This document shows, piece by piece, positions 35,821 through 64,000 of a stretch of 64,000 nt of DNA. The notes under the pieces are model-generated. The model was not told the DNA's origin. It saw only the letters and a list, made by a program, of their open reading frames with translations, and made no database searches. A program made the translations under genes and the position numbers. Origin of the DNA: Tubulanus polymorphus (lineage: Eukaryota > Animalia > Nemertea); NCBI RefSeq assembly GCF_964204645.1, contig NC_134032.1, positions 5,444,275 to 5,508,274 on the forward strand. The letters run 5' to 3'. Position 1 is the stretch's first letter; the number at the start of each line of letters is the position of its first letter.

Positions 35821-38040
35821 AAGGGATTCGCCGCTGAAATTATGCGCCTATCCTAGGGATGGGCACCGCATCGAAAACAAGGATTCTGTATACGCCTTAA
35901 CCGTCACCCTTAATCGAAACACGACTCTACTAAACATTGGTAAGAAGAAAGTAAATGTTCTACTAGACACTGGTGCCTCTATTTCTTGTGTATCTCAAAG
36001 GCTTATTAATCAAACTTTCCTAGTCAACAATCCGCTTGGCCCGTCTGATATTCCGACACTTTCAGGTGTAGGTGGTGAGCGACACGACGTTGTAGGTACT
36101 CGGTTTATCCTACTTTCCTTTAATGGTTTGATTATTGAACACAAATGCTACATTTTAGCCGAGCTTCCCCATCCTCTGATTCTAGGCATCGACTTTCTTG
36201 ATGTGAGTCACAATTAATATTCATAACAAAACTTTCACAATTTTTGAAGACGAACATTTGGTTTTTCATTTGGATGCAAACTATGGATTAGCTAGGACTG
36301 TCAACGAGTGACAATACCGGCGAAATCCGAAATCACAATACCTGTTAAAATACGTAATTTAGTGAATCACAATGATGTATCTAACTTGCCGCATCGGCAA
36401 TGTGCTGAGCCTGCTGCTTGTTGAAACATTCTGATGGTTTAGGATATTATCTTCTTGCTAATCCAAAGGACAATCCTGTTTCTTTGCCGTCCAACACTGT
36501 TGTAGCCAACGTTTTTGAATTAGGAGACAGTATTTCATCACCAATCGGTGACTTCGAATGCCCCACGAATAACATTGAGACGCCAGTAGTTGCCAATTTG
36601 AACATCGCAAACAATACACAATCGTTCGGACCAAGAAAATCCTAACTGTTCTCGGAAGCCATTAGATTTTTCCCTCGAAGGAGCGTGGATCTCAGACGGA
36701 GAAAAATACCAATTACGGACTTTGTTAAGAATATAGTGATTTATTTGCGACTGAACTATCGTACCTCGGTAAAGCCACGGGTCGCGAGCATGTCACTGAT
36801 ACAGGCGATGCGGTTCCCGTTAGATCACGAGCCTGCAGGTACCCTCAGCCTATTAGACAAATTCAGGGTGATATGATCCAGGAGATGCGACAAAATGATC
36901 TAATCATACCTTCTCAATCACCCTGGAATTCGCCTATAGATTTGCCGTTGATTACAGAAAGTTGAATCAGGTCATCTCTCTAATATCTCATCCACTGTAT
37001 CGGTTTTCTGACGTATTAGATTCTGTTGGTGAGGCTCAGGCAACTATCTTCACCAGTTTGGATTTAGCTCAAGGTTTTTGGCAGATTCCTCTAGATCCTG
37101 AAACTATGCACAAGTCAACATTTGCCACCCAAACAGGTAGTTATATGTTCAAAAGATTACCGTTCGGTTTACAAAACGTCCCTATGAGTTTTCAGCTTAC
37201 GATGAACGAGTTCTTAAAGGGAAATTCGCACTTGTTTATATTGATGATATTCTAATTTACTCAAAATCATCCAAAGAACATTTAGAACATTTACGATTGG
37301 TTTTTGATCGGATTCGGGAAGCAAATATGACATTGAAATTATCCAAGTGCAAATTCGCGGTAGACAGTGTCCCTTACCTTGGTTTTGTTTTCACTAAAGA
37401 TGGTATCAAAGCAGACCCGGCAAAATCTCAAGCTGTTCATGACTTTTTTGTCCCCGAGTCTCAAAAAGAGGTCCACCAATTTCTAGGTCTCTGTAACTTT
37501 TATCGTAGGTTTGTCAAGGGTTACTCGAACATTGCGGCTCCACTTAACGGTTTGTTGAGAAAGGATAAACGTTTTGTCTGGATAGATGTCAATGGGCATT
37601 TGAGGAACTGAAGGCAGCTCTACGATCTCCAGAGGTCCTTATTTACCCTGACCCAAACAAGGATTTCTTTCTTAGTACTGATGCCTCCTACATTGCCATT
37701 GGATATATGCTTGGACAATGGGATGATGAAGGCCACGAGAAAGTTGTGTGTTACGGAGGTCGTTCCCTCTCGGAAGAAAAAAAGAAATGGTCTACCAGAG
37801 ACAAAGTGTTTGGCAGTTGTTGTAGGTAAACCTTCAGAGAATATCTCGCACATCGTAAATTTAGGATTTTCACGGATCATCAATCGCTTAAGTGGCTTCT
37901 CAATTCAAAACATGTCGAAAGTTGAATCGGACATTGGAATGCTAAACTTCGAGGTTACGCATTTGATATTGAGTACAGGCTCGGGGTACGCAATCAGAAT
38001 GGTAACGCTCTCTTGTGACGCCCCTACTCTGATGCCATTT
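35783..38040 (+). pseudogene. pol: Gypsy pol (protease, RT, RNase H), fragmented
   Basis: VLLDTGAS, ILGIDFL, LDLAQGFWQI, LPFGL, YIDDILI, FLGLCNFYRRFV. Confidence 0.88.
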
Positions 38041-38557
38041 CAAATGACGACTGTGACGAAGTTCCTTCACCTCACGATCTAGCTTGTATTTCGATACCTA
38101 ACTGTGAGCCATTTCTGGGGGTGTTTTATGTTGAAGAACCATCCCGTAATGACTCAAACATGGTTTTCGTTGTCAGGAAGATGATACTGACGGTGGCATA
38201 GAGGCCCCGGAACAATTTAGAGACGTCACAGATCCTTTCCCTTCCTACCCCTCATATTGAGAACCATCAACCCCAGAACCCGAGTTTACAGATTTCAGTT
38301 CTGGCTCAACAGCGTTCTGAACCGTTACAAGACGATAAAGACACCATGTCAGCGCCATTACTTCAGAGCTCGGTTTTGAAAGATGGTAATTGGGTAGAAT
38401 ATGGGTTTAAATATTCTGAGCCTCCTACGATTAATTCTATTAAATCTGCGCCCACTGAGGATGACCTACGGATAACTATCGAGTCCTTACAACGTGAGTG
38501 TCCCGATATAGTGCCTAAATTGCATATGATAAAGTTTCGAGAGGGCGGTGATCTACC

Positions 38558-38743
38558 AGTAATAGGGATAATGGGCTTTCATACCAAAGGTCGAAGGGTC
38601 GAGCTCGTAAAAAAATGAAAATAATAATTTACAGTTGAATTAGTCGCGCACACTCCTAATTCAACTGTAAATTATTATTATTTTCATTTTTTACTCACTC
38701 GCCCCTTCAACCTTTGATACGAAAGCCTATTATCCCTATTACT
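38558..38743. repeat. Left terminal palindrome (~186 bp)
   Basis: agtaatagggataat...attatccctattact with the loop tcgcgcacactc. Confidence 0.92.
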
Positions 38744-38823
38744 CTTAAAATATTCACATAAATGAATAACATTTAAATCATTGAACTTCTAAAATCAATT
38801 TTAATAAAAAATATAGTATTAAA

Positions 38824-39075
38824 ATGGAAGCAAATAAGTACTACTGCCCAACATGTAATATCGATATAGATAAATCCCAAAAAGCAAGACACAATAAAAC
38901 TATAACACATTTAGAGAATAAATTGAAACTAGAATATTTACAGTTATATTCAGAACAGTTAACAAAGGGAAAGAAATTTATTGAATTATGGAATAATGAT
39001 CCAAATAATGAACAATACGTTGAGGAATTTATTATCAAGGAATCGAAAGAACTTATCAAAAGCAGCGAGGAATGA
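38824..39075 (+). CDS. Small zinc-finger protein (TIR-encoded N-terminus + HNH-derived tail)
   Basis: CPTC...H...H; the tail LQLYSEQLTKGKKFIELWN resembles the HNH C-terminus. Confidence 0.7.
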   Translation: MEANKYYCPTCNIDIDKSQKARHNKTITHLENKLKLEYLQLYSEQLTKGKKFIELWNNDPNNEQYVEEFIIKESKELIKSSEE

Positions 39076-39152
39076 AAAAGGATGACGTTAGTCGAAGAAA
39101 TGGAAGAGGATTCTAAAATGTTAATCAATTTTAATAAAAATATGTATAATAA

Positions 39153-39821
39153 ATGGAGCCGGAACAACCACAAACTATCAATATTACAAATAACACTGGC
39201 GTTATAAACATATATTACAAAAAGTGTTCTAAATGTGAATTAGATAAATTAGCTTTAACAGAATTTAGTAAGCGTAAGATTAGCAAAGATGGTTTTCAAA
39301 ATTGTTGTAAAACTTGTGCTAAACTATATACCAAACAATACCGAGAAGATAATAGAGAATCTTATAATGATTATATGACAGAATACATGAGAGAAAAATA
39401 TAAAACAGATCTTAATTTTAGATTGAAACAATGCTTAAGGTCTAGATTAACACAATTATTCAACAAAGAAACACATTCAGAAACACTATCTAATCTATTG
39501 GGTTGTTCAGATGAATTTCTCAAATCATGGATAATATATCAATTCGATGATAAAATGAATATAGATAATTATGGTGAATACTTTCATATTGATCACGTGT
39601 TGCCGATTTCTAAATTTGACATGAATGATGAATACAATAAAAAACTTATTTGGAACTGGAGAAATTTAAGACCTTTAGAAAAGAAAGAAAATATAATTAA
39701 ATCCAATAAACTAGATTTACAGTTATATTTAGATCAACTGGATAAAGCAAAGACATTTGTTGAATTATGGAATAGTATTTCACAGAATCAACCGCATTCT
39801 GAGGTTTTGATCAGTGGTTAG
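39153..39821 (+). CDS. HNH-family endonuclease-like protein with an N-terminal Cys cluster
   Basis: CSKC...CCKTC and HIDHVLP...NLRPL...EN. Confidence 0.8.
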   Translation: MEPEQPQTINITNNTGVINIYYKKCSKCELDKLALTEFSKRKISKDGFQNCCKTCAKLYTKQYREDNRESYNDYMTEYMREKYKTDLNFRLKQCLRSRLTQLFNKETHSETLSNLLGCSDEFLKSWIIYQFDDKMNIDNYGEYFHIDHVLPISKFDMNDEYNKKLIWNWRNLRPLEKKENIIKSNKLDLQLYLDQLDKAKTFVELWNSISQNQPHSEVLISG

Positions 39822-40169
39822 AAAGCTGGCAATTCTATTTGAGCTTTGTATGTATATAATACATAGCTTTTGTTTACTACTAAAACATATGTTGCCAAAT
39901 ATATCTTGTTTTCAATTCTAAAGAATTAATTAACTTCATCATAAAGAACATCTGTGCAGAAGTTATTAGTTTGGTCGAACGTGCGCCACGTTAGCAGTTA
40001 GAAATCAACTTTCACATACATAGTACGTATTGGATATTCTCTCTCAAAACACAGTTTACAGTTCTAAATCTAAATGTAAGTACCGTTTTTTGTAGTTATT
40101 ATGAAGTAGGGAAACCTTTAAACATATTTAAGTACAGTAATTCATTTTCACGACATCTTTTAGATTAAA

Positions 40170-40632
40170 ATGGAATACAGAACCAGAAATTCTAAGCCAA
40201 CCAACGGATGAGGAACGATTGCTACTGGATAGTGAAACTCAGGAATCAATAGAAATGGAGGATGAAACTCTCGTAATTGACGAACAAACTTCACAAACAT
40301 TACAAGAACATTTGGATTATCATCAAGAAATGGTGAAAATTCTGAGTGATGTAATACATAATAAACAATTACCGCGCGAACTACAATTACCAAAATTACC
40401 AGCAACGCGACTTAAATTGCTGTTGGGACTCAAAGAATCGAGAACTAAGAAAATGAGTGGAGATATCAGTGCCGGTTTTGAAAGAAAACTGAGAAGAGTA
40501 GGTAGATTAATAAAATATGAAAAATTCAAAATATTAGGATTAGCATTTAGTGAAGTAGTAAGACATTTACCAGAAATTGAAGAAATGATTGGAAACAATC
40601 CAGTAATTAAAGAAATCTGGACAAAATTATAA
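40170..40632 (+). pseudogene. Hypothetical protein (MEYR), frameshifted near the 5' end
   Basis: ATG at 40170 is out of frame with 40219-40632; the intact homolog is 8976-9443. Confidence 0.75.
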
Positions 40633-40724
40633 ATTATAACACTGAAGGTCTTTGTAATATAGATATCAAAAATGTAATCTCGATTGTATATATATGTTTT
40701 AATATTGTATTGTTTACTGTTAAC

Positions 40725-40910
40725 TGTGTATTGCGTAATAACCGGTCCGATTGAACCGCTTTTCTATTGTTCTCCATTGTTCTACTATTGATCGTTGTTA
40801 ATGGCGGCGGTTGTTCTGTATTGATTGTTTACTGTTAACTAAGTGTTGCGCAATAACCGGTCCGATTGGACCGCATTTCTATTGTTCTCCATTGTTCTAT
40901 TTTCGATCGC
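40725..40910. repeat. Two direct repeats with palindromic motifs
   Basis: ttgcgyaataaccggtccgattgraccgc...ttctattgttctccattgttcta twice; also at about 8670-8885 (-). Confidence 0.8.
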
Positions 40911-41321
40911 TAAAATGTGTATAATAAATATATATGTTTATGAAATAGTAATTCCACCAGTCGTTTCTTTGAATTTATTTTCAGTTGAGGATTTGATATC
41001 GAGGATCCGAAATGACTTATCTGGACAGTTATAATTACTGCTCCTAATAGATAGACAATAGTAGTGAGATAATCTAAATCCTAATTTAAATAAAATATAA
41101 TAAAAAAACAATAACTTCAACTAGCTAGTGAATTCTATTAAATTTTTAATATTTTCTTTTCAAAAAGAGAATACTTTATATTTTGAATAGATTCAAATAG
41201 AAATTCTTTAAATTCAAATAGCTAGTATCAGTAGTCAATACTAGAATTCTTTAGCTTTAACTATCTAGTATCATTTGAAGAATACTTATAATACTATTCT
41301 TATTAAATTTCTCTAATATAA

Positions 41322-41927
41322 ATGACAAAGAAATCTAATAAAAATAGTATTGATATTGAAAAGACATTAGATGATTTGGGCATAAGTGATAATAATGATA
41401 ATGTGGCAACTAAATGTGATAATAAAATTGATAGTAATATTGATTACGAGTACTATTTATATTGTAAACATCATCTAGAACTATTGATTGCTGGCGGGAA
41501 ATCTAAGGACTTCTTAGGAAAAATAATAACTTTTCAAGAACTAGACTCTATGAAACCCGATAAAGTAATAAAATATTTTAAGATTTATGAAGAGTCAAGA
41601 TTAGCTAGAATAAACGACTCTATAAGTGATGGTATTGTCAAATGTTATTCAAAATTATGTAACCAGTTAATACCAATTGATGATGAAAATAAATTATATA
41701 GTGATTTGAAAAATGACTATTTAGTTATGACTGAATTACAAAAATGGGTTGGATATGCTTCATTTCAATTAGGATCGGTTATGACGTTGATTTCTACTGG
41801 AGTTATAACATTTTCGAACATCAAACCTATGGAATATAAATCAGGTAAGAACGAAACAGATGTACTACAACAAAACATCGAAACAGAAAATGAATCAGAA
41901 CAAAAATTAACTAAAATAAATGAGTGA
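41322..41927 (+). CDS. Conserved Polinton protein with a C-proximal hydrophobic segment
   Basis: Conserved in three copies; LGSVMTLISTGVITFS. Confidence 0.8.
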   Translation: MTKKSNKNSIDIEKTLDDLGISDNNDNVATKCDNKIDSNIDYEYYLYCKHHLELLIAGGKSKDFLGKIITFQELDSMKPDKVIKYFKIYEESRLARINDSISDGIVKCYSKLCNQLIPIDDENKLYSDLKNDYLVMTELQKWVGYASFQLGSVMTLISTGVITFSNIKPMEYKSGKNETDVLQQNIETENESEQKLTKINE

Positions 41928-42291
41928 TGGAGTTAAGAAAAAGGCTAGATCCGAGAAACAAATTAAATGGGCAAGAGAATTAGGTAAAAGATCTTCAGAA
42001 TTAAAAAAAGCTAAGAAAAAGAAATTAACTGATATAAATGAATCTGATGGTGCCGTACGGCACCCACACGGTGGTATTGATTCAAATAATAATCCATCTA
42101 ATTCTTCTAATGCTGGAAGTAATTATAAATTATATATTACAATTGGATTAGTAACAGTTATTATATTATCCGGTGTAATATATAAATCAAAATTCAAATC
42201 CGATGATAAAGATGATTCTAATGATAATAAACCCATCATACCAGAAAATAAATCAAATGAAAATAAATCTAAAATATTATTAATGGATTAA
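41920..42291 (+). CDS. Basic, single-TM protein containing a 27-bp palindromic insertion
   Basis: LYITIGLVTVIILSGVIY TM segment; GAVRHPHGG insert. Confidence 0.75.
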   Translation: MSDGVKKKARSEKQIKWARELGKRSSELKKAKKKKLTDINESDGAVRHPHGGIDSNNNPSNSSNAGSNYKLYITIGLVTVIILSGVIYKSKFKSDDKDDSNDNKPIIPENKSNENKSKILLMD

Positions 42292-42294
42292 AAT

Positions 42295-43383
42295 ATGATG
42301 AAAAAAGAACAATATTTAAGAGAGTTATATTATAACCCAGAAAGTGAAGTATCATATTCAAGTGTTTCGGAATTATGGGATAAAATTAAATCTGATAAAG
42401 AAAAAATAAAATATAGTGAATTAAAATCATGGTTACAAAATCAACCCACATATCAAATTCATAAAAAGATGGATAAAAAATATTTAACAAGAAAAGTTAT
42501 GGTTTCATATATCGATCAGCAATGGCAAGCAGATTTAATTGACATGAAAAACTAAGAAGAATATAACAAAGGATATTTTTGGATACTGAATGTTATAGAT
42601 ATATTCAGTAGATACGCATGGAGTATCTCGATTAAAAATAAAACCGGTATAGAAGTAACAAATGCTTTTAAATCTATATTTAAAGAAGCTATTCCAGATA
42701 AAATACAATTTGATGAAGGTAAAGAATTTTATAACAAACATTTTAAAAAACTATTATCTGATAACGATGTAGAATATTTTTCAACACATTCAGATAAAAA
42801 AGCATCTGTTATAGAAAGATTTAATAAAACATTGAAAACTAGAATGTGGAAATATTTCACCGCTAATGAAACATATAAATATATCGATGTGTTAGATGAT
42901 TTAGTTAAAGGTTATAATAATTCTAAACATAGTTCTATAAATATGAAACCTATACAAGCTAGAAAAGAAGAAAATTCAGAAATAGTTTGGAATAATTTAT
43001 ATGGAGCATTTGTTACACATGATTTTGGAGAACCTAAATTTAAAATAGGACAACATGTTAGAATTTCTAAATATCGAAAAACATTTTATAAAGGTTATAC
43101 CCCTAATTTTACAGAAGAAATATTTAAAATTAAAAAGATAATATTAACTAAACCATTTGTTTATAAATTGTTTGATTTAAAAGATGAAGAAATATTAGGT
43201 TATTTTTATGAACAAGAATTATCATTAGTACCAAATCCAGATGAAATAGAATACAAAATAGAAAAGGTATCGAAAACAAAAACTCTTAAAGGAAAAAAGT
43301 ATTCTTTGGTGAAATATAAAGGATATGATGATAAATTTAATGAATGGATTTTATCTAGTAAAATTAAAAGAATAAATGAATAA
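42295..43383 (+). pseudogene. INT: rve/DDE integrase with a C-terminal chromodomain; in-frame nonsense at 42553-42555
   Basis: WQADL, FDEGKEF, ERFNKT, YN-x3-HSSI, YKIEK...VKYKGY...NEW. TTA>TAA relative to copy C. Confidence 0.92.
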
Positions 43384-43990
43384 AGATTTATTTATATTTG
43401 AACCGCATAATATGTTAATAACTGGAGTAACCAATTGTGGTAAAACACATTTCATATTAGATTTATTAGTAACTATTTATAAAAATCATTTTGATAATAT
43501 AATATTATTCTGTCCTACATATGAAATGAATAAAACATATAATAGAGATATAGTTTTTAAAGATAAAAAGTTTATTATATTAAATTCTAAAACAGTAAAA
43601 GAAAATTTAGATAATTGTATAAAAATAACAATTGATATTCATAAAGGATCAAATACATTATTTATTATTGATGATTGCGCAAATTTACATGATTCTAAAA
43701 TTAGAGAAAGTGAGTTATGTTATTTAGCTTTCTCTGGTAGACATTTTGGGATAACAACTTGGGTTTTAAATCAGAAATATAATTCAATTGTGAAAGATTT
43801 TAGAGAGAATATAAGATTTCTAGTTTTATTCTACAACAAAGATAAAAAATCTATGCAACAATCATTGGAAGAAAATCAAATTATACCTACTGAATTACAT
43901 GATGAATATATGAATAAATTAAAAAATAATAAAGGATCCAAATTACTTATGAGATTACAATTTCCATATGAATATAAATTTATAAAATAA
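43376..43990 (+). CDS. A32/FtsK-like DNA packaging ATPase
   Basis: Walker A GVTNCGKT, Walker B FIIDD, SGRH arginine finger, NQ motif. Confidence 0.92.
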   Translation: MNKDLFIFEPHNMLITGVTNCGKTHFILDLLVTIYKNHFDNIILFCPTYEMNKTYNRDIVFKDKKFIILNSKTVKENLDNCIKITIDIHKGSNTLFIIDDCANLHDSKIRESELCYLAFSGRHFGITTWVLNQKYNSIVKDFRENIRFLVLFYNKDKKSMQQSLEENQIIPTELHDEYMNKLKNNKGSKLLMRLQFPYEYKFIK

Positions 43991-44006
43991 AATCCTAATT
44001 CAAAAT

Positions 44007-44567
44007 ATTATAGAATTCGCTGTATATTGATGGATGAGTGGATGAATTGGATGAATTGGATGAGTGGATGAATGGAAGAGTGAAATAATATATAATTTAC
44101 ATATGTTTTTTATTTTTAAAACAGTAAGAGTTTGATTTGAAGATGTCATATAATAATAAATATATTTTTATAAAATAATAAAATGACAGATAATAAATGT
44201 CATATAATAATAAATATATTTTTATAAAATAATAAATAATAAAATGATAAATAATAAAATGATAAATAATAAATATATTTTTATAAAATAATAAATAATA
44301 AAATGATAAATAATAAATATCATATAATAATAAATAATAAATATCATATAATAATAAATAATAAATGTCATATAATAATAAATATATATTGTGTTAAATT
44401 TAATAAAGAATAAAAATATTATATTTATACTCATACTATTCTTCCAATTTATGTGTTAAAAAGTAAAATATATATATTATTATACTCATTCACTCTTCCA
44501 CTCATCCAATTCATCCAACTCTTCCAACTCATCCATTCATCCATCAATATACAGTGAATTCTATAAT
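44007..44567. repeat. Central inverted repeat enclosing AT-rich tandem repeats, between the convergent gene arms
   Basis: attatagaattcgctgtatattgatggatga... / ...tcatccatcaatatacagtgaattctataat. Confidence 0.88.
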
Positions 44568-44571
44568 CTTT

Positions 44572-45639
44572 TTAATTTTCATTTTCATATTTTTCTTTAA
44601 GCTTATTATATTCTAAATATATATCCCTTTCCATTTTATTTGGTATAATTCCTGAACGATTCCCAAGTTTATATTTATAGAATTTTGCTCTTGAAAATAT
44701 TTTTGGAATATAATTTTCGATTTCAGTTTTAGATGGATGTTTATTTAAAAATTCTCTAAAATCATCATATTTAAGTTCAAATAACTTCATTGCATAACTT
44801 ACATTTGGTTTAAAGTTATCTAACTTTTTCAATATGGTAACTATATCATTACTCGAGAAATAATCTATAAATGTTTTTCTATACCACCGATAATCTAATA
44901 TATTATTATTATTAAATTTTGAATTTATAACTCTTGGATCTTCTATTACATTATCTGTACCAATATGTTTAATTGAGTATTTATGATTCAATTGTTTATC
45001 ATATATTACATATTCTTTACATTTTTCACACCAAGATTTAAATACTTTTATTGCATGGGCTGAATCATTTCCACTTTTTGTTTTTAATTTATAATGTTTT
45101 GCCCAATTAGCCTTTGTTATACATTCATTACAGAAAGCACAATAATTCTGATCCTCTTTACATTTATCTTTATATATATTAGCATATGTTTTTACTAATT
45201 GTAAAATATGTTCATCTTTTTTGATGTGTAATAAATAATCATTATAATTATCAAAATCTTCTTCACAATACATACATCTGATGTTATCTTTTGGTTGAAC
45301 ATTTGATTTTTCTATTTTAGGTTCAATATTATGTTCTATTTTAGGTTCAATATTATCATCATTCGATGTAGAAGGTATAACATTATCTTCTATTTTAGGT
45401 TCAATATTATTTTCTATTTTAGTTTCAATATTATCTTTTATTTTAGGTTCAATATTATCTTCTTTTTTTATATCAATATTATTATTACGTTCAATTAAAT
45501 ATTCTTTGTATTGATTTAATTCATTTAATAAAAATGTTCCAATATATTCATTTATTCTTTTATAAGGTATTACATAATACAAATCATCATTGATTTCTTT
45601 ATCAGCTTTGATTCTTTCATATACTTTACCTCCTTCCAT
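44572..45639 (-). CDS. Multi-zinc-finger protein with IEPKIEDN repeats
   Basis: CMYC...H...H, CAFC...H, CEKC...H...H; 24-bp tandem units. Confidence 0.8.
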   Translation of the reverse strand: MEGGKVYERIKADKEINDDLYYVIPYKRINEYIGTFLLNELNQYKEYLIERNNNIDIKKEDNIEPKIKDNIETKIENNIEPKIEDNVIPSTSNDDNIEPKIEHNIEPKIEKSNVQPKDNIRCMYCEEDFDNYNDYLLHIKKDEHILQLVKTYANIYKDKCKEDQNYCAFCNECITKANWAKHYKLKTKSGNDSAHAIKVFKSWCEKCKEYVIYDKQLNHKYSIKHIGTDNVIEDPRVINSKFNNNNILDYRWYRKTFIDYFSSNDIVTILKKLDNFKPNVSYAMKLFELKYDDFREFLNKHPSKTEIENYIPKIFSRAKFYKYKLGNRSGIIPNKMERDIYLEYNKLKEKYENEN

Positions 45640-45671
45640 TTATTATATATATTTTTATTAAAGTTAAAATT

Positions 45672-46919
45672 TTAATACATAACACTATCTAATTGTGAAT
45701 TTACAATATTTAATTGCGCGTCAGATATAATATAAATGTGCATTTTAAAATTTTTAATTCCTTTTTTCTTTGTCATGAATAATTGTATTCCATCTTTAGT
45801 GTTTTGTAGTTTTTTTCCAGAACCATGTAATGAATTATCTTCAGTTGTTCTAAAATCTAACCATAATGCATATTTATTACCGGTATAATAATCAATTTGA
45901 TTAATGTTACAATTTTCAAATGATTTTATTTTTTCATTCATAAAATGTTTTCTAATTTCTACCCATTGATCTATCATTCTCATTCCTTGACAAAATATTT
46001 TATTCGCTATTCCTTCGATAGTTATTTCTACTTTTGTTATTTCAGGATTATAATAATTGTCAACATTTATTGCACCATTAGTATACGTTCCAATGGTAAA
46101 AAATATTAATATACCTTTAATAGATCTTCTAGGGAAGTTAATATTCTCATTTATTATTTCATCATTTGCATTAATAGTTACAGTTTTAAATTTATCAATA
46201 TAATCATATAATAATGAAAATCCTTGATTGTATTGAGTTTGAATTGTGCTAGCAATATTTTCATCAGTTACTGTATCATATTCTAAACATATATTCGATA
46301 ATTTATAACTCATATCTTTAACAACGCTAGATAATACAATTTCATTTACAGGAGCAAATGTTATCTCAAATATAACGTCTTCTTGAATTGCGTATTTATA
46401 TAAAGGTGCATTATTATTTATCAATTCAAAGTCTAATGGAATTTTATATTTGCTTCCATATATACTTTTTATCAATTTATCTACATCATTTGTTAATATT
46501 GCGCTATTAGCTTCTGATCTTAATTTATTTTGGTTTTCTGATTGGATGCCTTGAAATATCATATTATTTCTATTTTCTTTAGTTAACCATAAATCTTTAT
46601 AATGCATAAATAAATTATAATCATCTAATGAGAAAACTGTTTCCGGACCAATCTTTATTGTTAACTTTTTAATCAAATATCTTCCAACATTATCAACGAC
46701 ATAATTATTATTATTACCGGTTACTTTTATATCAGCTGATAAATAAATACTATTTGGAACATAAAAAGTATTTTGTGTTAATCTCGGAATTGTAACGTAT
46801 AAAGTTTCATCGGGATTAATATTTGAAGGGTTATGAGTAATTATATGATGTGATCTTTCTGCTTTAATAGCATTAGATATTCTATGATTCTTAGAAGGAT
46901 TGATATAACTCCCACTCAT
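45672..46919 (-). CDS. Putative major capsid protein (double jelly-roll)
   Basis: 415-aa beta-rich protein conserved in all copies. Size and context fit a Polinton MCP; recognised by pattern, not by search. Confidence 0.75.
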   Translation of the reverse strand: MSGSYINPSKNHRISNAIKAERSHHIITHNPSNINPDETLYVTIPRLTQNTFYVPNSIYLSADIKVTGNNNNYVVDNVGRYLIKKLTIKIGPETVFSLDDYNLFMHYKDLWLTKENRNNMIFQGIQSENQNKLRSEANSAILTNDVDKLIKSIYGSKYKIPLDFELINNNAPLYKYAIQEDVIFEITFAPVNEIVLSSVVKDMSYKLSNICLEYDTVTDENIASTIQTQYNQGFSLLYDYIDKFKTVTINANDEIINENINFPRRSIKGILIFFTIGTYTNGAINVDNYYNPEITKVEITIEGIANKIFCQGMRMIDQWVEIRKHFMNEKIKSFENCNINQIDYYTGNKYALWLDFRTTEDNSLHGSGKKLQNTKDGIQLFMTKKKGIKNFKMHIYIISDAQLNIVNSQLDSVMY

Positions 46920-46973
46920 TTATTTAACAAAAAAATTAATTATTTATTTATTGATATTTTTTGATATCATGGT

Positions 46974-48404
46974 TTACTTGATATTTTTTGATATCATATT
47001 CACTAACCCAAAAATAATAGCACTTACAACTGTGATTAAAAATAAAATAATATGTTCAGCAGCAAAGTTAATAATGTTTCCTGCAGATTTCAATATAAAA
47101 CCAACAATTGAAGCAATAACTCCTGGTAAAGCTGCAGCAGATTTTTTAGATAGTTCCCATAAATATTTTGCTAATTTCTTTAAACCATCTTTAACTTTAT
47201 CTTGTATAGAATTATTTCCTGGAGGTTTATCTGGTTTATTTGGAGTAGGAGTAGATTTTAAAGCATTTGATATTGCTAAACCAATTGTTGTAAATAACAT
47301 AGTAACAGCTGTTAGAATTGAAAGAATTGTTATTCCTTCTAATTTAAATAATAACTTTATTCTATCTTTTAATGATATTTCAGAATTTGGTTTAATCAAC
47401 AAATCTTTAAAAATAACTTTTAATCTATTAATATTATAATCATATGATTTTAACAATAATTTAATTTCTTCTTTCTGTACTTCTAAATTATCTTTTAGAT
47501 TACTAATTTCTTTTTCTAAACGTAATTCTTTTTGCTTATATTCTATTTCATCAATTACTTGATGATCTAAATCAGACTTTAATTTTTCTATTTCTTTATT
47601 TTTATCAGTTAATTCTTTTTCTAAAGTTCTAATTTTTTGATCTCTTATACTTTTATTATGTGCAATTTTATCAGCTTCATTTCTTATACTAATAATTTCT
47701 CTAATTGCTTTATCAGAAAATATATCTAAATCTTCTAATTCTTGATCTGTTGCATCAAGTAATCCATTTGGTAAAAGTTTTTCAGTTTGAACTTTATTTG
47801 ATTTAAGTTTACTAGTTTTGGAAGTTATATTCTGTTCAGAAGTTGTTTCTGTTTCTAAATTATTATTGATTATCTTAAAAAATTTAGCATTTCTTTGTTT
47901 AAATTCTTTTATATTATCAGATCTTTCTTTTTCTGTAACATCAATTATAGCATCATTTTTGATTTTCTTAATTCTAGATTGTTCTAATAAATTAAAAGTT
48001 GATTTTGTTATTATTTTATCACCACTTTTAAGATTTGAAATCTTAAAATAATAGTCGCCTTTCAATTTCCAATAATATTCACCATTTAAAAATTTTAAAT
48101 TTTTTACTAAATGATCCATACCTTTATTTGTTATATTGAATCCAGATTTTTCTAATATTGGTTTAAATTCATGAATAATTTCATTATATTTTAATTCTTT
48201 TTCTGTTAATTCTGGTACTTCATTTTCAATACTTATCTTTGAACGTGTTTTATCAATATATTGAGGTGTAGTTAAATTAGAATTATATGCTGTTTCATTA
48301 CCATCATTAAAACTTGTTTCATCAAAATCAGGTGGTTGTTCATCAGTTATACCAGGTTCATCAAAAGGATCCATTCCAATATCTTCTACACCTTCTACTT
48401 CCAT
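46974..48404 (-). CDS. Coiled-coil protein with C-terminal hydrophobic/TM helices
   Basis: Charged heptad region followed by ITILSILTAVTMLFTTIGLAI and IILFLITVVSAIIFGLV. Confidence 0.8.
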   Translation of the reverse strand: MEVEGVEDIGMDPFDEPGITDEQPPDFDETSFNDGNETAYNSNLTTPQYIDKTRSKISIENEVPELTEKELKYNEIIHEFKPILEKSGFNITNKGMDHLVKNLKFLNGEYYWKLKGDYYFKISNLKSGDKIITKSTFNLLEQSRIKKIKNDAIIDVTEKERSDNIKEFKQRNAKFFKIINNNLETETTSEQNITSKTSKLKSNKVQTEKLLPNGLLDATDQELEDLDIFSDKAIREIISIRNEADKIAHNKSIRDQKIRTLEKELTDKNKEIEKLKSDLDHQVIDEIEYKQKELRLEKEISNLKDNLEVQKEEIKLLLKSYDYNINRLKVIFKDLLIKPNSEISLKDRIKLLFKLEGITILSILTAVTMLFTTIGLAISNALKSTPTPNKPDKPPGNNSIQDKVKDGLKKLAKYLWELSKKSAAALPGVIASIVGFILKSAGNIINFAAEHIILFLITVVSAIIFGLVNMISKNIK

Positions 48405-48420
48405 TTACATAATAAAAAAA

Positions 48421-49809
48421 TTAAAATTTAAAATATAATATTCCTCCGATTACAATTCCTATACAAGTTATAGCTAATTTAGTATTTTCATGGGATTTAT
48501 TATCATCATTTAGTTTAATTATATCATGTTGAATTTTATCAGTTCTATTATTTTCTGTAGTATTGTAATCTTTTATTTTAGAATCATTATCCAATTTAAT
48601 ATTTTTAGTTTTAGTTTCAGTTGATTGAATATGTTTTTTATTTTTTTCACCTTCCATTAATTTTGGAGCAGTAATAATCTTTTTATTTATATCATTCAAT
48701 CCAAATGAATTATTTATTGTTGCAGTTTTAATTAGATTTTTATAACCAATTATGTTTCCCATCTTTAATACTAAATCATTAGAAATAATTAATAGATTAG
48801 GGCCTATACAATAATTTAGTCTTACATGAGATTTATCTAAATAATTTTGATATCTTATAATGTTTTCTGGAATCGATCTATTTTTATCATTATGAATTGA
48901 ATCTTCAAATAAAACTTTAAACTGTTTTTGTGTATCGAATGATGTATTCAAATTTCCAATTATCGGTGATCTTGTTTCAACTTGTGATCCTAGAATACAA
49001 ATCAAATAAGTTCTAATAGATTGATTTATTCTTTCTATACCTGATTTAGTAAAACCTTCACTATTTTCTAAAATAAAATAAACCCAACCATTATTGTTTT
49101 CTTGTTTTAGATTATCATAAAATTTCGGTAATTTATTGAAATTTAATGTTTCTAAATCCTTTGTTTCTATTTTACCATAACCTAATTTTTTATTATAGAT
49201 ATTATAAAAACTATTAGATGGTATGGGAAGTGCACAATATTCTGCAATCTTTCTAGGGCAAGGAAGTGATCTTATTGTTCCTATTTTTATTCTAAAATCA
49301 GAATTATTTATATCTATATTAAATTCATTGCAAATTTTATAAAACTTAGATAAATTAATATTATTATCCAATTCTTTGAAATACCTAGATCCTGGTAAAG
49401 CGCACTCTAATTCATTTAATATTATTCTGATTTGAAAGTATGTATGAAATCTAAATAAACTTTGAATTAGTTTATATTTAGAATTATTTAAATGATCATT
49501 CCAACTAATTCCACATCCTGTTGTTGCACAATAAACAGCAAAATTTAATTGATTCTGCCAATACTTCATATTAGATTTTAATAACCATTGTTTTTCATCT
49601 TTCAATTTTTTAAAATTAATTAAATATACATGAAATATATTTTCCATCTTTGCATTAAAATTATTAGTTTCAGTAACATAAATTTCTAAATTAGTTAATG
49701 AATCTAAAACTTCATTTCTATATGTAATATCTTTATTAAAATCTATTGCAGGAATATTATATTTAATTGATTTATTATATTGGAAAGCTTTTGGAAAACT
49801 ATCTACCAT
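48421..49809 (-). CDS. Conserved 462-aa protein with a C-terminal TM anchor, function unknown
   Basis: WQNQLNFAVYCATTGCGIS; tail LAITCIGIVIGGILYF. Confidence 0.8.
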   Translation of the reverse strand: MVDSFPKAFQYNKSIKYNIPAIDFNKDITYRNEVLDSLTNLEIYVTETNNFNAKMENIFHVYLINFKKLKDEKQWLLKSNMKYWQNQLNFAVYCATTGCGISWNDHLNNSKYKLIQSLFRFHTYFQIRIILNELECALPGSRYFKELDNNINLSKFYKICNEFNIDINNSDFRIKIGTIRSLPCPRKIAEYCALPIPSNSFYNIYNKKLGYGKIETKDLETLNFNKLPKFYDNLKQENNNGWVYFILENSEGFTKSGIERINQSIRTYLICILGSQVETRSPIIGNLNTSFDTQKQFKVLFEDSIHNDKNRSIPENIIRYQNYLDKSHVRLNYCIGPNLLIISNDLVLKMGNIIGYKNLIKTATINNSFGLNDINKKIITAPKLMEGEKNKKHIQSTETKTKNIKLDNDSKIKDYNTTENNRTDKIQHDIIKLNDDNKSHENTKLAITCIGIVIGGILYFKF

Positions 49810-49826
49810 TTATATAATTAAAAAAA

Positions 49827-50261
49827 TTAATAATTTATTAATTCTTTTAATAATTTATCTTGTTCTTCAACTGTTATATGACCATTTAAACTTATTATAT
49901 AATCTAGTGTGTTCTTTAATTTATTTATTTCTTTTATATTAGTTTTAATTTTTTCTTTATTACTTTTTATATTTAATTTTGAACTTATACCAGTTAAAAC
50001 ACTTGAACTTAATCCTAATACACCAATTGATATAGCTAAAGGTGTTAATGGACTGAATATTGCTAGAAATGTTATTACAGAACTAATTGTAACCGAACCA
50101 CTTATAATCATATAATATATAATTTTACTTTTTAAATATTTTTTCTTTTTTATCTTTAAGTCACTTACAAATTCTAATATTTGTTTTTCTAAATATGTTT
50201 TTAATTTAGTTTTATTTATATCATGAGGAATAATATCAATACTATCAACTTTATCTTCCAT
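49827..50261 (-). CDS. Two-TM protein
   Basis: IIYYMIISGSVTISSVITFLAIFSPLTPLAISIGVLGLSSSVL. Confidence 0.78.
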   Translation of the reverse strand: MEDKVDSIDIIPHDINKTKLKTYLEKQILEFVSDLKIKKKKYLKSKIIYYMIISGSVTISSVITFLAIFSPLTPLAISIGVLGLSSSVLTGISSKLNIKSNKEKIKTNIKEINKLKNTLDYIISLNGHITVEEQDKLLKELINY

Positions 50262-50282
50262 TTATTTAGCAAAAAAAAATTA

Positions 50283-50705
50283 CTAATTAGTAAACTTATA
50301 AGCAACAAATATAACAATAACTGTTCCACCTAAAATCCAAATTATTTCATATTTCTGTTGTTCTTTACTTGGGGTATAATAATCTGATAATTTAGGTTTG
50401 TATAGATGTAATTTTTCTTTATTTGTTACTGCGTTATATAAACTCATTGCATCATCAACTGATTTAAAATCTCTGTGTGAAATCTTCTGATCATATAATT
50501 CTTTGTTAATATAATCCATATAGTTTTGCCTCTTTTCTCTATATTCTTCTGCAGCTTTATTGTATTTCTCTAACGCTAAGTTATGTCTTCTTTGTTCTCC
50601 TAATGAACTATTTTTATCAATATGTTTAAATAAATAACCACCACCAGTAAATGCTAAAGCGTTAACAATTGCCGATCCTATAATAGTTATAATTGCAGAA
50701 GCCAT
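50283..50705 (-). CDS. Membrane protein with hydrophobic N- and C-termini
   Basis: MASAIITIIGSAIVNALAFTGGGYLF; IIWILGGTVIVIFVAY. Confidence 0.78.
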   Translation of the reverse strand: MASAIITIIGSAIVNALAFTGGGYLFKHIDKNSSLGEQRRHNLALEKYNKAAEEYREKRQNYMDYINKELYDQKISHRDFKSVDDAMSLYNAVTNKEKLHLYKPKLSDYYTPSKEQQKYEIIWILGGTVIVIFVAYKFTN

Positions 50706-50730
50706 TTATTTAGCAAAAAAAATTATGTAT

Positions 50731-50952
50731 TTATATGGGAGGAATATATTTTTGTTTTTCCAAATAATCAATTGTTAAATTAGATAAAGTAACCGCTAAT
50801 GTTAATTTTAAAATATCATTTATATCAAATCTATCAACATTAACACTTCCCATTTTGAATACTTTTTTTAATACCATTGAATAACCAACCGTTCCAACTG
50901 ATAGTCATGCGCCATTATATAATCCAGTTATTATCCACTTATTATCACTCAT
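50731..50952 (-). pseudogene. Small hydrophobic protein with an internal TGA; intact homolog at 16458-16679
   Basis: gcatgacta here versus gcattacta in copy F. Confidence 0.7.
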
Positions 50953-50955
50953 TTA

Positions 50956-51294
50956 TTAATCAAAAAAATTACTATCTTCAAAATATTTAGTTAACTTATT
51001 TATGATTAATTCAACATTTATTTTATTACTAGTTTTATGATTATCATATATTTTGGATAATATGTTTTTGATATCATCAATAATTCCATCTTCATTTAAT
51101 TCATAATATTCTAAAGGTGATTTAATTAAATCAATTACTTTTTCTATATTATAGTTTTCTTTATCAATCATTGATGCATTGTTAAATGATTTACTTTTTA
51201 TATCAGTAATTACATCATTTAGTTTAATTCTCATTTGTTTACCATGTTTAAAATCAAACCCAAAACATATACTCGGTCCAACAGTTATATTCAT
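50956..51294 (-). CDS. Hypothetical protein
   Basis: ORF with a TAAATG start; a degenerate homolog lies near 16180-16455. Confidence 0.65.
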   Translation of the reverse strand: MNITVGPSICFGFDFKHGKQMRIKLNDVITDIKSKSFNNASMIDKENYNIEKVIDLIKSPLEYYELNEDGIIDDIKNILSKIYDNHKTSNKINVELIINKLTKYFEDSNFFD

Positions 51295-52070
51295 TTATAT
51301 ATCAAAAAAATTACTCTACATCTTATAACTAATTCATATATCACAGGAAAGTTATTTAAATCAATTAAGTATCCATTATGATTTCTAATTTCTAATCTAA
51401 AATTATTAAAACGAGGAATGCATGGTTTGAAATCACATTCTGTTAAATTATAATTTATTTGCGTTCCAAATTCTTTAACATTCTTCAATGGTAAAATGTT
51501 TAGTAAACCAGAATTACAAGTTATATCTTTAGTTGCTTCGAATGTTTTTGTAGGATCGATTAAATTGCAATAAATATAAAAATGTGTGTAAGGTATTAAG
51601 TTTGGTGTAGTAGCGTCAATATTTGTAAAAGATCTATCTGGAATAATTCCTAACAGTTTAGCTATAGGTTTTTTTACCATAAATTTATGTTTTTCACTAT
51701 TAGACAACCTTATCTTTATTCTATCAGAACTCTCATTTTTTTAAAATCTAATACTAAACCCAGAACTACTACCTAATTTGTGCCAAGCTTTTCTATTAAT
51801 TTCTTGTGCTAATGTATCTAAATTATATAACCCCGGTTTTAAATATATATAGACCCATTTATTTTTATTTTTATTAAAAACTAAAAAGGCTCTATGTTCA
51901 ATAGTTTTATTCGATATATTGTAAAAAGAATTACATAAACTTATATTTACTAATTTTAAATCAACACAATTCTTGGATTCTCTATCTAATTGTACTAATA
52001 AATTATGTGATTTATAATTTGTAAGTTTTCTAGAATCAACAAATATTCTGTATTCTTTTAATTCCGCCAT
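51291..52070 (-). pseudogene. Minor capsid (penton-like, single jelly-roll) protein, frameshifted near 51740
   Basis: IFVDSR...NSFYNIS...PGLYN...KLLG...YIYCNLI...LLNILP...EIRNHNGYLIDLN matches the mCP pattern. Confidence 0.75.
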
Positions 52071-52087
52071 TTATTTTACATATTTTC

Positions 52088-52429
52088 TTATTCGAAATCT
52101 ATTTCATGGTGCCCTTTTTCATTCTTACCTTTGTATACGAAATAGAAATCTCCAGAACATAATTCTTCTAGATCTTCACTTGATAATCTATGAAATCTAT
52201 CTGGTAAATAAGTTCTGAATTTATATGTATTTCCTTTTAATCCTTCATATTCTAAATGAATTACTAATTTATCTCCATATTTATTAGTAATTGTTTCAAT
52301 GTTAGTAATTAAATATTTCTTGTGAATTGTTAACTCAGTTAGTTTTTTAAATTTATAATCTACAGATTTGACGCTTGAAGTATCTTTAATTCTATCTAAG
52401 AATTCACTGTGTACTTGTTTACTCTCCAT
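52088..52429 (-). CDS. Small protein next to pPolB, possibly an OB-fold ssDNA-binding protein
   Basis: TNKYG...LVIHL...TYLP.RF...FVYKG beta-rich pattern; the fold assignment is an inference. Confidence 0.5.
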   Translation of the reverse strand: MESKQVHSEFLDRIKDTSSVKSVDYKFKKLTELTIHKKYLITNIETITNKYGDKLVIHLEYEGLKGNTYKFRTYLPDRFHRLSSEDLEELCSGDFYFVYKGKNEKGHHEIDFE

Positions 52430-52457
52430 TTATTATACAAATTTTTATTGAAATTGA

Positions 52458-55400
52458 TTAACACGTTAGAATCCTTTTCATAATCTCATTTTCTTTTGTT
52501 TCTTCTCTTTTGAATTTTATATATTCATCTAAATTGCAACCATAGGCGACTGTGTGGATTCCATCATCTAAAATATATCTTTTATCATCAAATGGATTCA
52601 AACTTATCTTCTCTATCTCTTCAATATACATTTCATGATCTTCAGATCTTAAACATTTCATCTTATGTTTTCTAACTTCTTCATTAAATATACAATTGAT
52701 GTAATCTTTAAAATGAATATTCTTTTCAACAACGCTTTTGGTAATTCCTTTTAACTTTTTAGCTTCATGAGTTTTGGTTTTATATGAATACATTTTAGAT
52801 CTAATACCAATGAACTCTATCATTTCTTCACCACCTAATTCATCTTTGAATTTACCGGGAACTTTTTTATTATCATTGCTAAACAATTCATGATCTTTAG
52901 GATAGTTACTAAAATCAAAATGATGTTTTAATGTTTTTAAATCATCAGTTATGTTATCAGTTTTTATCTTTAATATATAACTGTCAGTATCAAAGTATAG
53001 AATTTCTATGTGTTTTTCTCCAAAATGAGGTTGTAGTATATTATAGTAAAATTTATACATTAGGAATTTTGATAATTCTAAAACTGCAGCTCCAACATAA
53101 ATCGGTTTGTTAAATTTCATACTTGTTCTTCTCATTTTAACTGCAGCTAAATTTTCATCAAATATTCTGTTACCTATAAACTTAGGATATGATTGTAAAT
53201 GCCTTATCCTTTTACCATTACTAACTAAATCAATATCATTTCTATTTCTAATATTTTCACAAGTTTTTCCATAGAATACATTATTCATTAACTTAAAAAA
53301 ATCTTTTTCAAAATCAGTTTTAGATTTAGTTCTCTGTGTAGTATTAAAATCTATATATTTTTCTAACCATTTAGATTGACTGAATGAAATATATCTATGT
53401 ACTTTTTTTAATATCATTCCTTGATTCAAATAAAACTTCAACATTCTATAATGCACAACGTAATTATATTTATCTTCTTGAGTTACCATTAACTTTTCTG
53501 TATGAATATGATTATCGGGTTTAATTCTTTTTTGATAATTTGATAATTCTTCATGTTTAACAGTTTTATGTTCGGGACAATATGCTAGATTTCTAGATTT
53601 GAATTTAATATTTTCAGGGTATTCTAAATCTACAACGAAGAAGTAACCAATATCTGAATCATCTGCAATATCTAGGATTCTTTTCTTCCAATCAAATTTA
53701 TCAATTTGTAAAACTTCAGTTATTTCAAACATCCCATAAGGTTGTGGTTCCATCATTGCCCAACCATAAAGATTATTTGCATCTATGTACAATAATTTAT
53801 ATCCAGGATTATCATTTACATTGAAATATCTATCACCTAATACACCTGAAACACCTCCTCTTATAGATTTTTCAAATAATAGTAATTGATCTATATTTGT
53901 TAACAAATCCATTTTTATATCTGTAAATTTTAATCCACAATCCCATGTTAATCCTGGTGATGAATAACAATGACATGGATCAATGTTAAAATATTTTAGG
54001 TTTACATCTCTAAACCTTTCGAATATATCGGTTAATAATAATACATCTGATTTTAAATATAAATCTACTAATTGACCATGATTTTCTATTTTGAAATGAT
54101 TCCAAATATTCAATGTTCTATTGTAGACTTCATCTTTAACATATTCATTTTTTAATTCATCATAAAATTGTTCTTTTAATAATTCAGTTATTTTAAAATC
54201 ATTATGATTTTTATAGAAAGAATATGGAATCGCTCCTTTATATCTCATTAATTGGAAATCATCATTATTTGGGTAATATTCTTTTAATATCTTTAATTCA
54301 TCATCAACTAATGATTTTGATAAGTTATCTAATGAACTATTTAAAAATCTATATGAATCTATAAATCTTAGACAACCAAATTGGAATGATATATAATTCT
54401 CAGATGTTTTAGCTAACATTCTAAATTTATAAGTTGGTATTTTATCTTTTGATCTATTTGAATTTAATATTTCTATTTCATTATTGATTTCTTCTATTTT
54501 ATGACATAACTGTTTGATAAATAAATGCGCGTCATACCCCGATAAATTGTGAAATATAATGGGGACAAAATTGATTTTCTTTGCTTGCAAATTACAATTC
54601 TCATGCGCAGCGCCTCTAAACTTTCCATTCAAATGATCATGGTCTCTTACTTTTTTATCTTTATAATTAAATATCTTTTCACAATAATAACATTTATCTG
54701 CAAACGCAAATTCTTCTTTATTTTCTTCTGTCATAATTATTTCTTTATTTGTATTCAATAATTTACTAAATCTTATTTCATATTCAATTAATAAGTCACA
54801 AAAATGATTGATAACATTTTCATTTCTATAATTATAATATTCACTTTCAATTAGTTCTGGATAATCAGATTTAATATATAACCCGAAAGCTGCAGCTGAT
54901 TGATGAATCTTTTTAATAGTATTTGTTTTTGGTGGTTCTTCTGAATAATCACTTTCATTAGAATTTAATTTCTTTCTTTTATAATATATTTCTTTTCTAT
55001 CTTTATCTGTTAATTCTTTATTTAATGATTCAAAATCTCCATATATTACAAATGGTACTTTATTTTTGTAATCATATTTTTTGAATTCTAATATTTTATC
55101 TTTTTCATTTGGTAAAACTAATTTACAATAATCATGATTATCACATAGTTGTTTATGATTTAATAATGTACTTTCATTACTAAATTTATGTAAACATTTT
55201 CTACATAGATATATTTTATTATGGTGATCACTTTCTGTTCTAAAAAATAAATCTATTTGTTTAATCCACATATAATGATTCTCATAATATAGTATATCTA
55301 TAACATCGTTTGAATCATAATCTTTTGATAGATATAAAGGTTCTAATGTATAATGTTTTATGTTGTTACCTTTTGTATTTGGTAATTTGATTAAATCAAA

Positions 55401-56492
55401 TACATTTATCTTTATATTATTATCTCTTTCTATTTTTGGAATATTTTTAATTCTAACAGGATACTTATCTATCTTATAATTATTTTCAAATGGTTTATAA
55501 TGAGTTAATCTAAAACTATGTTGTTTATAATCTTCAACTGGGTGTGAGCAACTTATAATTGTCCATAGAAAACATTTATCATCTTCATTTTGTACATTTA
55601 TTACAGCATTAGTTTTAAATGGTAGTTTAATATAACTTGATGCTTCAATATCTGGTTCTTTCTAATATGATAAATTATTTTCATCAATTGGTTTTGATTT
55701 AGTTAACTTATTATATTTTGTGTTATAAACATGTAAAGTTATAAATATTATCTCATCAAATATTAAACCAGATCCTTCAAAATATTTCTCTTCTATTTTA
55801 GTTTTTATTTCATTATAACATTTATTTAATTTATCATCTATATGTTGTTTAGATATAATATGTTGTGAATGAGAATTTATATTATATATTGGTTTATCTT
55901 CAGATTTTATAAACTTTACTTTAACTGATATACTTATTTTAGGATATTCAACATCTGTAATTATTTTTATTATTTATTTCATATTTTCTAAATGTTTTTT
56001 ATTTTCTTCTATTGTTTTTCCTTTATGAAATTTAAACTCGATAGCTGCTGGACCAATATCACTTTTAAATGCTTCGGTTATCTCTATATCTTTTTTATTA
56101 TCTAATGAATTAATATAATTTCTTACATCTTCCATACATGGTCTTTTATTGTTTAATTTATTTTTTATTCTTTTAATTGTCTTCTGTTTCTTATCGTTAT
56201 CATTATCAAAATAATCTTCACCTAAAATATCATTATTCTTATTTCTAATATGACTTATAGATTTTAAATGTTCTTTATAATATCTTTTATCACTGAATGA
56301 TTGATTACATATATCACATTTGTATGTTTCTTTTTCATTCCTTAATTCTTCTAATTTAGTTTCTAATATATCATCTTCATATTCTAGTTTCAATTTATTC
56401 TCTAAATGTGTTCTAGTTTTATTGTGTCTTGCTTTTTGGGATTTATCTATATCGATATTACATGTTGGGCAGTAGTATTTATTTGCTTCCAT
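52458..56492 (-). pseudogene. pPolB: Protein-primed DNA polymerase B with N-terminal zinc fingers/terminal-protein region and an endonuclease-VII-like Zn insert; disrupted between about 55975 and 55660
   Basis: Exonuclease motifs YGDFES, FHNLSGYD, YLKSD; polymerase motifs YIDANNLYG, KLMNNVFYGK, YFDTDS; CYYC...RDHDH...GAAH..CN. Confidence 0.95.
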
Positions 56493-56572
56493 TTTAATAC
56501 TAAATTTTTTATTAAAATTGATTTTAGAAGTTCAATGATTTAAATGTTATTCATTTATATGAATATTTTAAG

Positions 56573-56840
56573 AGTAATAGGGGTAATAGGCTTTCAAGCT
56601 AAAGGTTGAACGGGCGGGTGAGTAAAAAATGAAAAACATAAAAATAATAACAATTTCTACTTTAATTAGGAGTGAAACTCATAAAAATGAAAAATTAATT
56701 CGAGCGTGTGAGAATTAATTTTTCATTTTTATGAGTTTCGCGAGTAATTCAAGTAGAAATTGTAATTATTTTTATGTTTTTCATTTTTTACGAGCTCGAC
56801 CGTTCGACCTTTGGCTTGAAAGCCTATTACCCCTATTACT
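56573..56840. repeat. Right terminal palindrome (~268 bp)
   Basis: Same outer arms as the other ends; core gaaactcataaaaatgaaaaattaatt / aattaatttttcatttttatgagtttc. Confidence 0.92.
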
Positions 56841-63063: not shown

Positions 63064-63095
63064 AATTTTAACTTTAATAAAAATTTATTATATAA

Positions 63096-63985: not shown

Positions 63986-64000
63986 TAAATACTTAAAACC

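Follow-up and report, generated by a model that had tools for sequence, protein, structure and literature searches.

Endogenous virophages carry promoters that match those of their helper viruses (10.1101/2025.10.09.676808; 10.64898/2026.07.28.741278), and the Polinton-like viruses (PLVs) found with entomopoxviruses have been linked to poxviruses by co-purification (PMC11296320). For animal Polintons, no virion or life cycle has been established (10.64898/2026.06.19.733378). We analysed a window of 64,000 nucleotides from the nemertean Tubulanus polymorphus (NCBI RefSeq assembly GCF_964204645.1, contig NC_134032.1, positions 5,444,275 to 5,508,274, forward strand). It contains an 18.3-kb Polinton at window positions 38558-56840 that encodes a protein-primed DNA polymerase (pPolB), an rve integrase, an A32 ATPase and a double jelly-roll capsid protein and has palindromic ends. 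Comparison of its promoters with those of related loci and of poxviruses suggests that the element is probably a satellite depending on the post-replicative transcription of a pox-like helper virus.

An earlier note on this DNA had reported TAAATG overlapping 14 start codons and TAAAATG at 38824, 40170 and 56492, and all of these were present at those coordinates. TAAATG occurs 64 times in the element; it marks 14 of 18 gene starts but only 7.2% of the remaining ATGs (p 2e-13). Short spurious open reading frames (ORFs), taken as a first-ATG-after-stop control, began with TAAATG in 23 out of 191 cases (p 3e-10 against the genes). The enrichment over background that had been set beforehand as a check was thus observed. 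The same note had cautioned that TAA plus ATG can arise from stop/start packing. Across the window and 13 related loci, the TAA served as the stop codon of an upstream ORF in 1 out of 66 TAAATG starts, the single case lying in L003; before the start at 50952, the upstream ORF ends in a TAA of its own, distinct from that in TAAATG. The near-copies L002, L012 and L014 were excluded from the counts of upstream motifs, class 2 promoters, depletion, gaps and sister-clade signals.

The signal extends upstream of the start codon. A T stands 9 nt before TAAAT (position -10 when the first A is counted as +1) at all 14 TAAATG starts in the window and at 60 of the 66 starts in the window and its relatives, compared with 32% of 130 other TAAATG sites, and it is kept where the promoter sits inside a coding region. 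The T-run that the note had described before TAAATG at class 1 genes was present as well: a run of five Ts preceded 30 of the 66 starts and 9 of the 130 other sites. Because T-runs after stop codons were found mainly where a gene on the same strand comes next, they belong to the promoter of that next gene. In each of the eight divergent gene pairs separated by less than 80 nt, both strands carry TAAAT; the distance from ATG to ATG is just 19-30 nt in six pairs. In L007, the T-run and TAAAT are retained 17 nt upstream of the ATG, which shows that the signal need not overlap the start codon. The tiny intergenic gaps reported earlier are present but do not discriminate, as medians of 2.5-32 nt were found in every clade of the capsid lineage. 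No RNA polymerase family matched any of the 20 element ORFs in a family search, in agreement with the earlier note. Two features typical of virophages are found together here, namely the lack of an RNA polymerase of its own and, by sequence comparison, promoters that match a class of helper virus.

To place the signal in a wider context, we took the best 80 of 165 metagenome loci from a capsid alignment search, 56 of which had a usable N-terminus. Among these, the capsid gene started with TAAATG in 13 out of 14 loci at 50% identity or more and in 0 out of 42 below. The TAAATG-capsid loci form one clade of 15 rows in a quick tree (SH-aLRT 98). For ORFs of at least 100 aa, TAAATG starts were found in 55 out of 65 in this clade, 0 out of 40 in the sister clade, 6 out of 312 in other loci and 1 out of 46 in AT-rich outgroups. 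Clade loci with a GC content of at least 0.28 still had TAAATG at 25 of 32 such ORFs, and members with up to 44% GC keep the signal. Since four of the five genes in the membrane block at 46974-50952 have homologues outside the TAAATG clade, and most of the block is common to the outgroups, the promoter rather than gene content marks the clade. Separately, both ORFs of L077 carry TAAATG at the start although its capsid fragment is only 38% identical. Depletion of TTTTTNT on the coding strand (15 observed, 38.7 expected) was considered as a pox-like trait and rejected, as T-runs were depleted in nearly all groups.

The geometry is that described for poxvirus late promoters. In vaccinia late promoters, the 10th nucleotide upstream is a conserved T among other Ts (PMC11980589), and the element T coincides with it exactly or is one off, depending on numbering. 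TAAATG is the described geometry of poxvirus late starts (PMC5294985) and is annotated in a fish poxvirus (PMC4542343) and an entomopoxvirus (PMC3061580). A positive control came from L091 (IMGVR_UViG_3300031924_000064). Its capsid belongs, as the third member, to capsid lineage 1 of the entomopox-associated PLVs (supplement S4, PMC11296320). This contig shares no protein with the element at E<=1e-3, and 6 of its 12 starts carry TAAATG, compared with a 2% background (p 8e-8), with T at -10 in four of the six. The genes with TAAATG include those for the capsid, ATPase and phospholipase. Neither a further member of the L091 lineage nor the second entomopox PLV lineage was found among viral contigs, and four of the five matches of one capsid search were unrelated.

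A second promoter class had been proposed for the zinc-finger ORF and pPolB, the likely HNH nuclease, the putative single-stranded DNA-binding protein (SSB) and, more loosely, the MEGG gene. The A-rich core of its shared motif was present, but the long shared form is partly a product of duplication and its copies are not independent: 38824 and 56492 lie in the two terminal inverted repeats (TIRs), and 39153 and 52429 share approximately 50 nt of near-identical upstream sequence. The proposed early motif on the reverse strand, AAAATTGA, did not hold up. It is antisense to these genes, relatives lack it in their class 2 promoters, and the 7-mer AAATTGA occurs 14 times across the element. The conserved part is instead TTWAATAA on the sense strand at -21/-22, seen at 8 out of 68 starts compared with 1 out of 189 controls. 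By a hand count from a published scaffold, its register is that of the vaccinia G8R intermediate core (PMC12917281). A sense-strand core resembling that of intermediate promoters is a better reading of class 2 than an early motif on the reverse strand. The suggestion of two temporal classes is plausible, but the tie between class and function is loose. Among IMG/VR viral contigs, seven matched the class 2 pattern; none used TAAATG generally, and no helper was found among them.

Taken together, these comparisons (conservation across the clade, the fixed T, the divergent promoters and L091) point to a poxvirus-type post-replicative promoter in an integrated Polinton that has no RNA polymerase; this part of the earlier proposal is supported, whereas its early motif is not. 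In such a satellite, the helper polymerase would read TAAA as an initiator, start at the first A and slip, producing a 5' poly(A) leader. The T-run promoters of the capsid gene and membrane block would act as late promoters, and the A-rich TTWAATAA core at -21/-22 of pPolB, HNH and MEGG would act as an intermediate-like promoter, so that the replication genes would be expressed before the others. The satellite would replicate in the cytoplasm with its own pPolB, package its genome with its own ATPase and capsid, and integrate by means of its rve integrase.

Several points weigh against this comparative interpretation. The loci are related and the counts are therefore not independent, so the motif may have arisen once. 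AT-rich outgroups (L020-L022, L034, L037 and L088) have starts with a T and four to nine As before TG; an A-rich start context thus extends beyond the clade, which is set apart by exact spacing. L091 is a single contig, it is its lineage rather than the contig itself that comes from occlusion bodies, and stop/start packing accounts for one of the six TAAATG starts. The anchor of the class 2 core has a one-base spread whether measured from TAAA or from ATG. Vaccinia intermediate promoters are described with no T at -10 (PMC11980589), but class 2 TAAATG starts keep this T, which is absent only in TAAAATG starts. The vaccinia intermediate core is itself described without a consensus, and the same study detected no homologue of VITF-3 in entomopoxviruses (PMC12917281); a table in the salmon gill poxvirus paper gives A23R in all poxviruses (PMC4542343). 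In L003, the core before the likely penton gene is of class 2, and the 113-aa gene, which is of class 2 in the window, falls into class 1 in that locus. Finally, yeast virus-like elements also combine a TAAAN initiator with slippage leaders (PMC6211774).

This last system bears on the alternative that fares best, although we consider it unlikely: a viral-type cytoplasmic polymerase from a helper that is not a poxvirus, for example a different large DNA virus whose initiator is TAAA, or a linear cytoplasmic element that encodes its own polymerase, as yeast pGKL2 does. No poxvirus has been shown for the carrier host, and the outgroup clades have related starts with T and an A-run. However, the full geometry, with a T-run centred on -10 and TAAATG at the start codon, agrees with descriptions of poxvirus promoters; the motifs of mimivirus, Cafeteria roenbergensis virus (CroV) and asfarvirus differ (PMC5294985). 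The entomopox-linked control matches, and the seven IMG/VR contigs with the class 2 pattern do not use TAAATG generally.

Somewhat less probable still is an autonomous nuclear element, in which TAAATG, fixed in this clade, would serve the RNA polymerase II of the host as an initiator, the leader being very short, or would act in translation, with an in-frame stop that insulates the start. The element carries an integrase and a polymerase and is present in many host copies, some protists start transcription beside the ATG, and a G at +4 in 46 of the 66 starts gives a Kozak-like context. The usual eukaryotic start context, in turn, prefers a purine at -3, where TAAATG places a T. Against a host signal, neighbouring retroelement ORFs start with TAAATG in 0 out of 6 cases and with TAAAATG in 1 out of 6, and a translation signal leaves both the fixed T 9 nt upstream and the displaced copy in L007 unexplained. 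AATAAA is not avoided in the window ORFs (56 observed, 51 expected), in a test that did not separate the clades, and the relatives of the flanking Penelope that have a species name, 3 of 120 rows, are all crustaceans, a faint indication that the host is an aquatic invertebrate. The remaining idea, that the motif is a by-product of AT richness (the element has approximately 23% GC) and stop/start packing, is refuted by the enrichment, packing and cross-clade counts given above and deserves very little credence.

The sequence at 38558-56840 is a copy of a capsid-encoding Polinton that has integrated and is decaying. In addition to its protein-primed polymerase, integrase, capsid and ATPase genes, it has TIRs with 94% identity over 267 nt and a 6-bp target-site duplication. 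This duplication, GTTATC, pairs the ends at 2225 and 56840 in an inverted arrangement, with Penelope as the target; the end at 38558 has no duplication partner within the window. Because the former two ends share the duplication and the latter is unpaired, this copy has probably been rearranged. Broken genes are those for pPolB (two in-frame stops), the integrase and the likely penton, along with two small ones. The element is present in many copies in its host. Read contigs, which covered 38000-44100 only, were far deeper over the element than over its flank in three runs of one study; they give no copy number. Further fragmented copies (82-94% identity, both orientations) lie at window positions 1-31009 and 58980-64000, interleaved with Penelope and Gypsy-like pieces. 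Many genomic copies skip the stretch at 38801-39136 that holds the zinc-finger ORF, with one class 2 core joined to the next. The terminal palindromes at 38558-38743, 56573-56840 and 10734-10922 have five arm mismatches at identical positions in all three, and three positions vary jointly in both arms, as if the arms had been copied from each other with the mismatch patch kept. The segment at 43989-44585 is likely a small element that was inserted later.

Table 1. Annotated features of the Tubulanus Polinton (window positions; class 1, T-run plus TAAATG; class 2, A-rich core)
Feature	Position	Strand	Details
Left TIR	38558..38937	.	Outer 186 bp (38558-38743) an imperfect palindrome, first letters AGTAAT; DNA fold z -16.6
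Zinc-finger ORF, 83 aa	38824..39075	+	TIR duplicate of pPolB 5' end; TAAAATG start, class 2 core
Likely HNH nuclease, 222 aa	39153..39821	+	TAAATG, class 2; weak HNH match only, in the L001 homologue (E 0.0055)
Frameshift-broken gene, family unassigned	40170..40632	+	TAAAATG; intact 155-aa copy at 8976-9443
Lineage-conserved gene, 201 aa	41322..41927	+	TAAATG
123-aa protein with hydrophobic stretch	41920..42291	+	TAAATG promoter within upstream ORF
rve integrase with chromodomain	42295..43383	+	Stop at 42553-42555; TAAAAT just before ATG
A32 packaging ATPase	43376..43990	+	Pox_A32 E 1e-12; TAAATG promoter within integrase 3' end
Inverted-repeat segment, ~600 bp	43989..44585	.	Between convergent ATPase and MEGG genes; AT-rich tandem interior
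MEGG zinc-finger/repeat protein, 355 aa	44572..45639	-	TAAATG; class 2, likewise in L001, L002 and L005
Double jelly-roll major capsid protein	45672..46919	-	Class 1; model pLDDT 81.5
Five-gene block with hydrophobic segments	46974..50952	-	476, 462, 144 and 140 aa plus a stop-broken gene of ~73 aa; all class 1
112-aa gene	50956..51294	-	Class 1
Likely penton (minor capsid protein)	51291..52070	-	Two ORFs here; single 254-aa ORF in L003
113-aa gene, putative SSB	52088..52429	-	TAAATG, class 2; promoter duplicated at 39153
pPolB with N-terminal zinc fingers	52458..56492	-	DNA_pol_B_2 E 6.5e-15; two in-frame stops; TAAAATG, class 2
Right TIR	56379..56840	.	268-bp terminal palindrome 56573-56840, z -26.3; flank GTTATC

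Homologues clarify several of the genes in Table 1. Integrase homologues in L001 and L003 are intact, with 72-96% identity over the aligned parts, and match both rve and Chromo. The gene starting at 50952, broken here, is also intact in L003. A Foldseek search with the capsid model matched the capsids of Paramecium bursaria chlorella virus 1 (PBCV-1), iridovirus and mavirus, with capsids of the nucleocytoplasmic large DNA virus type leading. The penton candidate gave a low-confidence model (pLDDT 39) with weak matches to minor capsid proteins. Of two labels proposed earlier, HNH has its weak match in a homologue, while the putative SSB has no Pfam match. In L003, a deoxynucleoside kinase gene at 10340-10981 stands under a class 1 promoter; no named viral relative of this kinase was found. 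Searches with the capsid and pPolB found no relative among viral contigs or plasmids and no PDB sequence match, and a search of genome contigs returned two distant loci only.

Other clades of the capsid lineage have start signals of their own. In the sister clade (L015, L016, L023 and L031; L017 is a near-copy), TATA lies within 25 nt of 21 out of 28 starts, with 4.0 expected. In these four loci, ATT begins 14-17 nt before TATA in 11 out of 19 cases, compared with 21 out of 155 other TATA sites. The late promoter of p72 in African swine fever virus (ASFV) has TATTT at -15 to -11 and TATATA at the start (PMC5294985), which the bipartite ATT...TATA signal of the sister clade resembles. In the L032-L067 group (GC approximately 0.52), TCTA and CTAG are enriched before starts (TCTA at 20 out of 84, with 6.1 expected); TCTA is the tetramer of the CroV late motif.

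More tentatively, and with rather less confidence than for the pox-like helper itself, we propose that a widespread lineage of animal Polintons may consist of integrated virophages, whose subclades would have switched helpers by rewriting the promoter on every gene, to a poxvirus-type TAAATG here and to an asfarvirus-type ATT...TATA in the sister clade. If so, endogenous copies would record the large DNA viruses that infect each host, including undescribed pox-like viruses of aquatic invertebrates, and might provide animals with a heritable antiviral trap. A helper-type promoter across the clade predicts pox-like viruses in the carrier hosts, and helpers of endogenous Polintons could be assigned from the start motifs. 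The results bear on the question of whether animal Polintons are autonomous viruses or satellites, and they add promoter evidence that the entomopox-PLV study (PMC11296320) was without. The word 'promoter' appears nowhere in the main text of PMC11296320, PMC11131425, 10.64898/2026.10.13.758929 or 10.64898/2026.06.19.733378. We found no published poxvirus-type promoters in a Polinton, in a literature search that covered mainly open-access papers and the main texts of preprints. Poxvirus-associated PLVs have been described, as have virophage promoters matched to a helper; in this search we found no promoter analysis that connects them.

Among known systems, the animal Maverick/Polintons (Polintoviricetes) share with this element pPolB, the rve integrase, the A32 ATPase, the double jelly-roll capsid, TIRs starting with AGT and the 6-bp duplication. 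Group 1 Maverick-Polintons have a cysteine protease, whereas a family search of the 20 element ORFs, several of which match no family, gave no match to the adenovirus-type cysteine protease. Our guess is that the element belongs to an outlying animal group (Polinton-3_NV, N1A_NV and octocoral, hydrozoan and bivalve elements near Aquintoviruses). The entomopox PLVs AHEV_PLV1, AHEV_PLV2, CBEV_PLV1 and Ca_PLV1 are, like this element, small, capsid-encoding and Polinton-like, and are proposed to be parasites of poxviruses (PMC11296320). However, they are approximately 12 kb with a protease and phospholipase and no rve integrase, whereas the element is 18 kb with an rve integrase and a membrane block. 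The capsids are unrelated: lineage 1 gave a pairwise BLASTP E value of 0.037, and lineage 2 was unlike by eye. Mavirus and endogenous mavirus-like elements integrate by rve, encode pPolB and have promoters matching the late motif of their helper; the element resembles them in its integrase, its pPolB and promoters that match a class of helper virus. Their hosts, however, are protists, and their helpers are of the CroV type with a TCTA late motif; the element capsid is related to theirs in structure only. Reactivation and protection have been shown in those systems. Terminal palindromes that adjoin target duplications are also reported for Halocafeteria elements, where they occur mostly in elements without pPolB (10.64898/2026.07.28.741278). 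Unlike poxviruses themselves, the element carries its signal on nearly all genes without a polymerase or transcription factors, shows no early-class promoter and keeps the -10 T in class 2. Like poxvirus late and intermediate promoters, its promoters combine TAAATG at the start codon with a T-rich core, a T near -10 and an AT-rich core approximately 12 bp before TAAA.

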